Positions 9,001 to 12,000 of a DNA stretch of 64,000 nucleotides are shown here, piece after piece. Made by a program: the position numbers. This DNA comes from an uncultured Alphaproteobacteria bacterium. GTDB lineage: Bacteria; Pseudomonadota; Alphaproteobacteria; Rs-D84. Each line of letters starts with the position of its first letter. Within the stretch, counting starts at the first letter, position 1. The stretch covers positions 120,427 to 184,426 of the forward strand of contig CALXOX010000001.1 in NCBI GenBank assembly GCA_944390125.1. The letters run 5' to 3'.

Positions 9001-12000
9001 ATTGCAATTATGATTTTCTTTTTCATTTTGTTTCCTTTTGGTTTCCTCCAAGTAGCTCAAAAACAATTACTGGTATGATTAGTATCAGCCCAATATAAAA
9101 CAATACTTCCATATATGGCTCAGGTTTCTTGCCAGGTTTTATTAAGATTTTCATCACAATTCCCCATAGCACAAGAAACAATAATACAATAAGCCAATCC
9201 ATTTTTTCTCCTATCATTTTTTATTATTTATATTTTTTAATCTGGTATTCTAATAGTCATATATCTGTTCTATATCCGTTTGCAGATTTTTTAATAATAA
9301 GAGAATCACAAACTATCATGGAACGTGTTTTTATTATTCCAAATTCTTTGGAGAATTCATACTTTGACATCCGGCAGGTATATCAAACAAAAACTCATAT
9401 GCAAAGCAACCACTCCATGCAACAGTTTCTGAAAAATCTTTATTGCTTGTGGTGTTATCATTGTTCATGAATTATACCTTATGATTGTTTTTTGACTTTC
9501 TATAGCCAATGATAGTCAAGACAATGCCAACACCAATACCTCCGAAATAACGTCCAACAGCCAATGGGTCTGTTGTTATAACCAACGCGAAAAAGCTAAG
9601 TATAGTTAAAGCAATTCCACAATAATACATTATATGTTTTTTCATATCTATCCCCTTGCAAGTATAGAAAAAAGACCGTCAACAGGAATGACGGTCAGGG
9701 AGTTGATAAATCAGTTTGCGATTGATTCCGTGGCTTTCGGGTTACCCCTGTTGTATAACCAACAGCTCCCCGACCATAACAGTCAGGGACATAACGGTGC
9801 GATGCACCATTATATCAAGATAACGATGCGACATCGCACCGCGCAAACTAGGCTTATCACAGCCCTGAAACCAATTCCCATTGGCTTCAAATATAGTATA
9901 CAAATAAAAAGATAAAAAACAAATAAATTAATTGGCTTTATTGGGTACAGGGTGGGCATTTTATAAGTTACGCCGAACCATCCTTTTTTTTATTTTAGCC
10001 CCCGTATATGTAAATATACAACCATATATATTGACGTCTTATCATAATATTGATATAATTTGTTTAGTAGAAACAATGTGTAATCCCCAATTTACAGATG
10101 CGTCGACGCATCTGTAAATTGGGGGATAATTTTTAATTTAGCCTCTGTTGCATTCAGAAAATCAACACATTATAAAATTTTTTTAATATTTATGCAAAGG
10201 TCTGCATTGTTTATTATAAAATCCGCCCATTCCATTGACTGCCACGTTTCTTTCGTGAAAATAGGTATTCAGATGAAATTATCGCGGAATTCGCATAAGC
10301 ATTGCCTAAGCTTCCTGGTTTTAACTGTTTCATAGTATATTTTGCAACACGCCATTCTGTGCCCGGCGTTATTTCCTGTAAATAGGGATTTTTGGGTACG
10401 GGGGTACGCTTTGCATGCTGTGTTACTTTATTAAATGCACGTTTCCAACACAATAAAGAACGCGAAGAATCTTTTATTAAAATGTGCATATGATATTCGC
10501 CTTTATCGTTAATTTCACCAAAACCTATAAAAGGAATATGATAACGATACCAATTACGCCCCAATATTTCACGTTGAACGCGACTCATAAAAAATAATAA
10601 ACGTTTCTCAAGAACTGTTATTGTACGAGCCCTGTGGTTGCAATCCCACTGTAAAGTTAAATGATATGTGGGTGCAAATGCTTGTACGTATTCAAATAAA
10701 TCTGTATATATTTTATTTTGATTAAGCATAGTTTTACTCCTGTTGCAATAATTTGTTAATAGGTATTCCTATTATTTAATTGTTTATAGTTTGATTTCGT
10801 TTAGCATACACTTGCAATAAGGGCTGGGTGCATGACTAATGTACCTGTCCCCCCCATACAAATTGAAAAGGGGATGACGCCGGCATTATCAGAGAAAAAT
10901 ATCCCCCTATACCTCCTTGATCTGTTTTTGCTGTTTTGCAATATCTGCAAGAATCTTGAAAAAAGACACCAAACGTCCTGCAGCGTCGTCTGCCTCGGTC
11001 ATTGATAACTGTTCTGAATACAGTTTTTGAATTTTCAAAGATAGTTGCTTTTGTATTTGCATACCCCAAGTAAAAGGGGGATTTTTATACTGGTAAAATA
11101 AAATATTAAGAGTATATTACAGCACAATAAAATCCCCATACAGCTGAAAGATATACTTTTATCATTAAATAATAAGGGTATGAAAAATGATTAAAGTTCC
11201 GATTCTATTTCAAGCAATTTCTTTTTTTGTTCACTTGTGAGAGAATTGGATCTTCGGGCTTTAATAATACTGGCGTGTGATAACGGATTGTTCAATATTC
11301 CAATATATCGCGCATATAAGTTTTCTGGTGTCCCAGTGTAGGAAATATCCTTTTTGACTTTTTTCATTATATTAATCCAGGTCATTTTGGGGTATTTCGC
11401 TTTATATTTTTCTGCGGTTTTAACCAACACGACACCCGCACAACTAAGCCATTTTTCTGGTTGCCCTAGCTTTTTAATTTTTGATCTATCCATAAAGCCA
11501 GTAAATTTCAATTTAATTGCCATTTGTCTTATAAGTTCACGAGTGGCAGGATCTAAATCAGTCGGTCTTTCCAACCCGTATTTCGCATACAACGCTTTCT
11601 CTCTGTCAACTAAACAGCTATCTCTTGTGCTACGCCCGATACGCGGATTTACCTTTGTAACTCCATCAATAAAAAGATCTGGTAAAGGTGTGTATAAGAT
11701 ACCATCTTTCTTTGGTCTTTTACTCATAATTGCTCTCTTTTTTGCTACTAGGAGGTCATAATAGAATGTTTTAAGTAAAAAACAAATTTCTGACATTAAA
11801 GTTATTTTTATTAATCCCATTTAGGTAAAGGACTAATTTTCCAATAAAGATATATCAATTGTTTTCTGAACTAATGAAATAATTTCTAATTTTTCCATCA
11901 AATAACCAGTCTGGCATTTTTAACGAACCATTATCTTTGGCTAGTTTAACAGCAGGATGGTTGGCAAGCACTAACCTAATCAATCTAACTGATTTATATG

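Follow-up and report, generated by a model that had tools for sequence, protein, structure and literature searches.

A Rep-class HUH endonuclease gene and a conserved palindrome within a recently mobile integrative element family of Candidatus Enterousia

Is a lone rolling-circle Rep-like gene with a perfect palindrome beside it, lying on a bacterial chromosome, the relic of a plasmid or phage or a working part of an element that still moves, and what is the palindrome for? This question was raised by a stretch of 64,000 nucleotides from an uncultured Alphaproteobacteria bacterium (GenBank assembly GCA_944390125.1, contig CALXOX010000001.1, positions 120,427 to 184,426), referred to below as the window. 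A first-pass annotation, made from the sequence alone, had singled out in it an open reading frame (ORF) of 171 aa, here called rep, together with the palindrome next to it. The close homologues of its product were all found either on gut metagenome contigs or in genomes of Candidatus Enterousia, uncultured gut alphaproteobacteria with genomes of about 0.75–1 Mb (PMC12306168). Loci compared with the window are labelled L001, L002 and so on where they have to be told apart, and the features of the window are collected in Table 1.

A word-indexed search of 5.8 billion proteins returned six close homologues of the Rep protein (60–95% identity), and about 89 relatives were returned when 1.84 billion cluster representatives were searched exhaustively with a profile; 54 of these relatives were aligned for the analysis of conservation. 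The gene starts with ATG, preceded 8 nt upstream by AGGAG, and its product displays, in this order, motif I (HLTLQ, residues 23–27), the HUH motif (YHMHILI, residues 79–85, with H80 and H82) and the Y-x-x-K motif (KYTMK, residues 130–134, with Y131 and K134), just as the first-pass annotation had read three HUH-superfamily motifs in canonical order from this ORF. Across the alignment, in which identity falls to 20%, W60, F67, E72, H80, H82, Y131 and K134 were invariant and motif I was FLTxQ-like throughout, so the motif residues of the HUH, tyrosine and lysine positions are shared by the homologues as the assignment demands. In the predicted structure, motif I lies on the strand 22–26, H80-M-H82 on the strand 79–85 and the Y131/K134 motif on the helix 125–132, and the fold is an antiparallel beta-sheet plus helices, as in Rep nuclease domains. 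The catalytic tyrosine is C-terminal to the HUH motif, which is the replicase order, whereas in relaxases the tyrosine is N-terminal to it and the canonical forms are circularly permuted relative to replicases (PMC4814116).

The window protein matched the Pfam family PF23343 (REP_ORF2-G2P) at 20.5 bits (E 6e-4; gathering threshold, 27.8 bits) and PHROG 3584, annotated as replication initiation protein, at E 3e-3, and gave no match in an NCBIfam scan or in a sequence search of the PDB. At the family level, 48 of the 54 aligned members matched REP_ORF2-G2P at E <= 0.01 (best E 1.4e-8), seven matched PHROG 3584 and two the rolling-circle initiation PHROG 3419; in addition, the family profile weakly aligned its E-x7-HxH and Y..K residues onto the nuclease domains of parvovirus NS1. 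Judged from these profile comparisons, the family appears to be a distant sister group of PF23343 rather than a member by the curated rule. The profile, motif and fold evidence thus gave good support to the identification of the window protein as a Rep-class, single-tyrosine HUH endonuclease, in keeping with the superfamily and class first proposed for it.

Pairwise ratios of nonsynonymous to synonymous substitution rates (dN/dS) of rep between element lineages were 0.08–0.17, indicating that the gene is maintained under strong purifying selection and is not decaying. On a few metagenome contigs, a truncated allele (P0005; 119 aa, with 93% identity across two-thirds of the query) was observed, which suggests that some copies of the element are decaying, though the family overall is under purifying selection. 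Distant members of the Rep family also occur in chromosomal islands that have tyrosine or serine integrases at their edges and carry methylase and restriction cargo.

The GC content of the window falls from about 0.40 to 0.30–0.35 between roughly 5 and 14 kb, and this low-GC island, together with the comparison of loci, bore out the earlier impression of foreign DNA on an otherwise core chromosome. One end of the element is formed by a gene for a large serine recombinase, whose ORF extends over the attR core into a tRNA-Gln gene. A core repeat of 9 bp, CAACCAAGA, is common to both ends; the core-to-core distance was 8,565 bp in the window and 4.7–7.9 kb in the eight other loci measured. In all nine loci scanned for tRNAs, the recombinase end adjoins a tRNA-Gln gene, mostly with the anticodon CUG but with UUG in L007 and L008. 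Near-identical elements were seen to occupy these two different genes (UUG in L007 and L008; CUG in L006, L009 and L010), so that the recombinase appears to recognise the common tRNA 3' end (...GGTTGGGGC) and not one locus. At the other end, the 55 bp on the element side of attL (window 13408–13461) were 83–88% identical in all loci; the DNA outside attL was unrelated between loci and contained a terminator-like hairpin in most of them, as expected for the original sequence downstream of a tRNA gene. Furthermore, the elements were 92–99% identical across Candidatus Enterousia species, whereas their flanks were unalignable or 66–75% identical, which points to recent movement between species. 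It is thus well supported that the element containing rep is intact, has moved recently and integrates by means of a serine recombinase. The term "remnant" used for it in the first-pass annotation did not survive the low dN/dS of rep, the full-length recombinase gene, the att repeats at tRNA-Gln and this interspecies movement.

The same backbone was found at every locus examined, in the order attL, variable slot, 51-aa ORF, rep, palindrome, short inverted repeat, antisense promoter, structured RNA leader, variable slot, recombinase, attR. The smallest element, of 4.7 kb, has five ORFs, with 1.5 kb taken by the recombinase gene. In the window, the second variable slot holds the genes for membrane proteins and the AbiL pair; the membrane-protein genes, which lie downstream of rep, vary from element to element. 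In a close relative the variable cargo comprises PIN-domain proteins (PIN_12/PIN_8), and other relatives carry other ORFs; the AbiL pair here and the PIN proteins there make the element a small vehicle for defence genes. Scans of the 51-, 57-, 64-, 145-, 209- and 460-aa ORFs against Pfam, PHROGs and PADLOC gave no significant match, and the scans of the element ORFs detected no phage structural or conjugation family. For the conserved 51-aa ORF, AlphaFold predicted a two-helix hairpin, which speaks neither for nor against a CopG-like or excisionase role.

The recombinase gene and its surroundings yielded observations of their own. In the integrated state, the C-terminus of the recombinase reads ...SWL-GQLDSNQH (4864–4899, minus strand), the tail being encoded by the complement of the tRNA; excision to a circle would change this to ...SWL-TIVNELRTDYYDDIINL..., followed by a variable tail (window 13327–13464, minus strand). 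The peptide TI(V/L)NE(L/F)RTxYYxD(I/V)(I/M)N is kept across lineages through synonymous changes. This may represent a state-dependent isoform of the recombinase, or simply the P' arm of attP. In L005 (Candidatus Enterousia intestinigallinarum), which carries a 93%-identical copy with rep intact, about 650 bp are deleted in the recombinase gene (window 5494–6144 is missing), and the whole block from the autotransporter gene to attL (L005 7258–20271) is inverted relative to window 1300–15200. These differences could represent a real rearrangement or a misassembly of the metagenome-assembled genome.

Table 1. Features of the element in the window, with the palindrome variants of related loci
Feature	Position	Strand	Description
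tRNA-Gln(CUG)	4823..4896	plus	Integration target
attR core repeat	4891..4899		CAACCAAGA, at the 3' end of tRNA-Gln
Large serine recombinase gene	4864..6408	minus	Resolvase, Recombinase and Zn_ribbon_recom domains; likely ATG at 6369, giving 501 aa
AbiLii-like gene	6395-7144	minus	Abortive-infection pair with AbiLi
AbiLi AAA_21 ATPase gene	7141-8331	minus	AAA_21 E 1.5e-69
Three small predicted membrane proteins	8589..9645	minus	145, 64 and 57 aa; variable cargo; downstream of the RNA leader
Structured RNA	9668..9889	minus	About 220 nt; own promoter; terminator 9674-9696; directly upstream of the small membrane-protein genes
Sigma-70-type promoter	10031..10059	plus	TTGACG-17-TATAAT, extended TG; points into the palindrome, antisense to rep
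Short inverted repeat	10060..10076		TTGTTT-N5-AAACAA; between antisense promoter and palindrome
Inferred antisense small transcript	10066..10135	plus	About 70 nt; promoter, palindrome stem, T-run (ATAATTTTTAATTT)
Perfect palindrome	10085..10124		40 bp; 20-nt arms 10085-10104 and 10105-10124, no spacer, GTCGAC centre
rep	10214..10729	minus	171-aa Rep-class HUH endonuclease; motif I HLTLQ 23-27, E72, H80/H82, Y131-x-x-K134
Invariant block	10804..10831	minus	CACCCAGCCCTTATTGCAAGTGTA; about 80 nt upstream of the rep ATG
Conserved 51-aa ORF	10907..11062	minus	No family match; directly upstream of rep
Two ORFs	11191..13237	minus	209 and 460 aa; variable cargo; no family match
attL core repeat	13456..13464		CAACCAAGA
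Palindrome variant, window			...GCGTC/GACGC...
Palindrome variant, L002			...GCATC/GATGC...
Palindrome variant, L004/L005			...GCGCC/GGCGC...
Palindrome variant, L006-L010			TGATTTATAGATACGCCA/TGGCGTATCTATAAATCA
Palindrome variant, L001			15-nt arms, 9-nt loop; starts 8 nt past the stop codon
Palindrome variant, L015			...TGATGTGGCCGC/GGCCACATCA; contig ends inside
Palindrome variant, L016			25-nt arms, sequence unrelated

The palindrome begins 89 nt after the stop codon of rep. Its perfection, its GTCGAC centre and its distance of about 90 bp had been described correctly at the outset, whereas the arms of 21 bp and the total of 45 bp then given have to be corrected, since positions 10084 and 10125 are T and G and the palindrome thus spans 40 bp. 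Its arm was found at one site only in the window (0.01 matches expected by chance) and the hairpin folds at -32 kcal/mol (z = -6.6 versus shuffles), which places it far beyond chance. As summarized in Table 1, a palindrome adjoins the 3' end of rep in every related Enterousia element lineage, in seven sequence variants. Wherever one arm has changed between variants, the other carries the matching change, and this extends to the two positions nearest the axis on each side; no two variants have the same centre, which was conserved in no comparison. Five of the six complete variants are loopless, the exception being the 9-nt loop of L001, and the seventh variant (L015) is cut by the contig end. 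At the distant family loci L011–L014, no comparable palindrome was present next to rep, which implies that rep and palindrome are associated in the Enterousia clade only. As a rule, replicases nick within the loop of a hairpin (PMC4814116), and a double-strand origin would have a conserved nick sequence there, which is not what these variants present; the unconserved centre and the prevalence of loopless forms argue against a classical nick-in-loop double-strand origin. Separately, two metagenome contigs were seen to end at or inside the palindrome (L015 end, 8620–8643; L017 end, 1020–1034). The palindrome probably breaks short-read assemblies, and may in this way hide related elements or circular forms.

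Further signals flank rep on both sides. The antisense promoter agrees with the consensus at 11 of 12 positions and stands 25 nt from the palindrome; its hexamers and spacing are kept in the L001 and L006 lineages, in which the spacer sequence has diverged. A T-run follows the palindrome on the plus strand in the window, L002/L005 and L001 types, and a terminator scan called the palindrome terminator-like on that strand. Read from these signals, an antisense RNA of about 70 nt would extend from the promoter through the palindrome. The arms of the short inverted repeat co-vary between lineages, as read from the alignment, and the antisense transcript is predicted to start within this repeat, which is therefore a candidate for an operator or a site of Rep. 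On the other side of rep, the block CACCCAGCCCTTATTGCAAGTGTA, with one copy per element, was essentially invariant in all seven lineages and was the sole non-coding sequence to be so; it is a candidate site for Rep or a regulator and a possible alternative location of the origin. Two promoter candidates were rejected in the course of the analysis. The invariant block was dropped as a standard sigma-70 promoter of rep on account of the alignment, which contained no conserved -10 element at usable spacing, and a minus-strand promoter at 10169–10198, between rep and the palindrome, was dropped as it was not conserved in the L001 and L006 lineages.

Based on the Rep identity, the purifying selection, the element structure and the conserved cis signals, we consider it moderately probable that Rep drives rolling-circle replication of this small integrative mobile element in its excised state. 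The recombinase would excise the element as a circle, and Rep, with E72, H80 and H82 holding a divalent metal and Y131 acting as the nucleophile, would nick one strand at an origin within the conserved non-coding DNA flanking its gene. Rep would then stay linked to the 5' end of the DNA, and host helicase and polymerase would carry out the rolling-circle replication, which would prevent loss of the excised element and supply copies or single strands for transfer. From the convergent promoter, a short antisense RNA would probably be transcribed as far as the palindrome and would hold down the expression of rep, in the manner of the copy-control RNAs of rolling-circle plasmids. The palindrome itself would most likely be a DNA-level site, bound or extruded in initiation or termination, and would double as a transcription stop.

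Several observations weigh against this scheme. No excised or circular form was found, and the reconstructed attP junction (GGTTGTCAATCTTGGTTGACGATAGTAAACG) was absent by exact search from the JGI metagenomes and IMG/VR, which hold very few Enterousia contigs and gave two attL hits only. No nick site can be assigned, the centre of the palindrome being unconserved and five of the six complete variants loopless. The antisense promoter is absent in the L016 lineage, and no T-run directly follows the palindrome in the L006 and L016 lineages. The window Rep scores below the Pfam gathering threshold. Lastly, tblastn searches of annotated phage and plasmid collections with the window Rep and with the distant family member P0029 returned no match, so that a replication function is assigned from homology and fold.

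A narrower alternative concerns the palindrome, which might act purely as a terminator stem that stops the antisense RNA and the rep mRNA bidirectionally, with the true origin elsewhere, e.g., in the invariant block upstream of rep. We attach substantial, though clearly minority, weight to this possibility: the strong opposite-strand promoter just upstream is conserved, the T-run and the scan result point the same way in several types, neither the centre nor the arm sequences of the palindrome are conserved across all lineages, and the one non-coding sequence that is invariant is the upstream block. The stem, however, comprises 18–25 perfect pairs, far more than terminators need, and its symmetry holds even at the central four bases, which would be unpaired loop in an RNA hairpin. 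The T-run is lacking directly after the stem in the L006 and L016 types, the latter also being without the promoter, and the position of the palindrome beside rep has been retained despite complete turnover of its sequence. The length, the central symmetry and the persistence without a T-run in two lineages exceed the needs of a terminator. Of the two roles offered for the hairpin by the first-pass annotation, an origin of the nick-in-loop kind fits the palindrome poorly, and the terminator-like character was seen in some lineages only. Template-switch correction of long inverted repeats could keep a palindrome perfect without selection for its symmetry. Considering the poor fit to a nick-in-loop origin, the excess over terminator needs and this possible upkeep, the palindrome may be a DNA-level site for Rep or a regulator, a transcription stop, or both.

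As regards the function of Rep, the main competitor of rolling-circle replication is a role as relaxase, with the nearby inverted repeats as the origin of transfer (oriT) of an integrative mobilisable element (IME) that is excised and nicked and then takes over the mating pore of a co-resident conjugative element. In small integrase-bearing elements of streptococci, some of which have serine integrases, rolling-circle-initiator domains (Rep_2, Rep_trans, PHA00330, Viral_Rep) are classed as relaxases (PMC5357655, PMC5704250). The nic site of a relaxase lies beside an inverted repeat and not in a loop (PMC4814116), which agrees better than the replicase model with a palindrome lacking both a loop and a conserved centre, and the elements clearly move between species. 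Nevertheless, the motif order of the protein, with its tyrosine C-terminal to HUH, is that of a replicase; no coupling protein or accessory Mob family was detected in the element ORFs, which in the minimal element number five, whereas most streptococcal Rep-like IMEs encode a TcpA coupling protein (PMC5357655). Likewise, no conjugation genes were present at any locus examined, and the host genomes are small. Overall, we regard the relaxase role as unlikely, and rolling-circle replication of the excised element is kept as the preferred function.

The first-pass annotation had also suggested an origin from a single-stranded DNA phage, and the locus could accordingly be viewed as the remnant of an integrated filamentous or other such phage, or its satellite, with Rep as a gene-II-like protein. 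The best profile matches are indeed to the inovirus/plectrovirus Rep family PF23343 and to phage replication PHROGs, and after the Rep module come genes for small membrane proteins whose C-termini are basic. The expected companions were not found: the Pfam, PHROG and PADLOC scans of the element ORFs detected no Zot-like assembly ATPase, coat, adsorption or other morphogenesis protein. The membrane-protein genes differ between elements, the recombinase gene occupies about a third of the minimal element, and rep is not decaying. Besides the phage collection, which gave no tblastn match to Rep or P0029, IMG/VR scanned with an alignment of close Rep homologues contained no relative. With these results, and with no tblastn match of Rep or P0029 in the plasmid or viral-contig collections either, a phage origin is very improbable.

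Equally improbable in our estimation is that Rep resolves the palindrome by symmetric nicks in both arms with strand transfer, in the rolling-hairpin or flip-flop manner in which its closest structural relatives, SIRV1 ORF119 and the parvovirus Rep/NS1 proteins, treat hairpin or palindromic termini, the excised element passing through a hairpin-ended or palindrome-junction replicative form. Each arm would then be re-templated from the other, which would explain why the palindrome is kept perfect and loopless, up to its very centre, despite complete sequence turnover between lineages; we know of no bacterial integrative element that replicates in this way. Finally, that the protein is an IS200/IS605- or IS91-type transposase and the palindrome its subterminal hairpin is very improbable as well, since Y-x-x-K is invariant while the position giving Y-x-x-x-Q, the form of the motif in IS200/IS605 TnpA, is variable (+4 after the tyrosine), none of the 54 members matched any transposase family at E <= 0.01 in the Pfam scan, rep is present in a single copy whose position within the recombinase-bounded element never varies, and one palindrome is present instead of a left-end and right-end pair.

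The structured RNA of the backbone belongs to a family of about 220–250 nt that extends beyond the element. The window contains three copies (9668–9889, 4484–4734 and 20580–20765, all on the minus strand), and others were located at L001 14975–15225, L005 15307–15556 and L006 5307–5555. Of 76 predicted pairs, 14 were supported by compensatory changes. Each copy in the window has a same-strand gene close downstream: the copy in the element is followed by a terminator hairpin and then the small membrane-protein genes, the autotransporter copy by a terminator hairpin and then a PMP autotransporter gene, and the third precedes a 181-aa ORF. The family has the look of a cis-regulatory leader not described before, and in its 3' half it is similar to the Rfam family sRNA-Xcc1, a small RNA associated with mobile elements, at 39–43 bits against a gathering threshold of 53. 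The idea that this 220-nt region is an element-specific single-strand origin was dropped, as chromosomal copies precede unrelated genes and each has its own promoter and terminator. In addition, the DNA just downstream of the autotransporter gene (window 1177–1308 and below) resembles the interval between RNA leader and autotransporter in L002 and L005, and this similarity suggests a tandem paralogous autotransporter gene that would run off the start of the window.

Altogether, the analysis defined in Candidatus Enterousia a compact, recently mobile element family, in which a fixed backbone of serine integrase, Rep-class HUH initiator and conserved non-coding signals is combined with two variable cargo slots bearing defence genes. 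For organisms without genetic tools, it provides candidates for a replicon, an integration site and a set of promoters, and it adds a sparsely populated clade, with about 89 representatives among 1.84 billion, to the HUH proteins. It also poses a puzzle, namely, why the palindrome beside rep stays perfect and loopless when its sequence turns over entirely. An integrase and a rolling-circle-type initiator combined in a small island at a tRNA 3' end make up a general design known from IMEs, actinomycete integrating plasmids and replicative integrative and conjugative elements. What is new is the HUH clade, which lies below the threshold of any curated family, the host lineage and the conserved loopless palindrome.

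Integrating replicons that replicate after excision include the actinomycete integrative and conjugative elements (AICEs) such as pSAM2, ICEBs1, and SCCmec-type elements, which possess replication genes as well as serine recombinases. The element described here is like them in combining an integrase with its own replication initiator in one small chromosomal island and in using the 3' end of a tRNA or other conserved gene for insertion, and differs from them in initiator family, host and transfer genes. Among protein families, PF23343, which comprises plectrovirus and inovirus replication proteins, is the only one that the Rep sequence touches; together with PHROG 3584/3419, it shares with the window protein the order of motif I, HUH and Y-x-x-K. 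Unlike these phage proteins, members of the Rep family reside in chromosomal islands and not in phage genomes, and the window protein is not accompanied by phage genes. The plasmids of the pMV158 type have RepB, a small CopG gene upstream and the antisense RNAII; compared with them, the present element is integrated by a serine recombinase, its antisense RNA would overlap the 3' end of rep and not the translation start, its small ORF is predicted to form a helical hairpin and not a ribbon-helix-helix, and a hairpin loop with a conserved nick site is lacking. The streptococcal IMEs (PMC5357655, PMC5704250) are alike in size, in the pairing of an integrase with a Rep-class HUH protein, in site-specific insertion and in variable cargo, and they are unlike it in that the host here is alphaproteobacterial, no TcpA-type coupling protein is encoded and the HUH family is a different one. 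In structure, the best match of Rep was SIRV1 ORF119, which, like the nuclease domains of parvovirus Rep/NS1, shares 10–19% sequence identity with it; those proteins serve viral rolling-hairpin or flip-flop systems on linear genomes (PMC4187194), whereas the element of Candidatus Enterousia showed no sign of a linear form.

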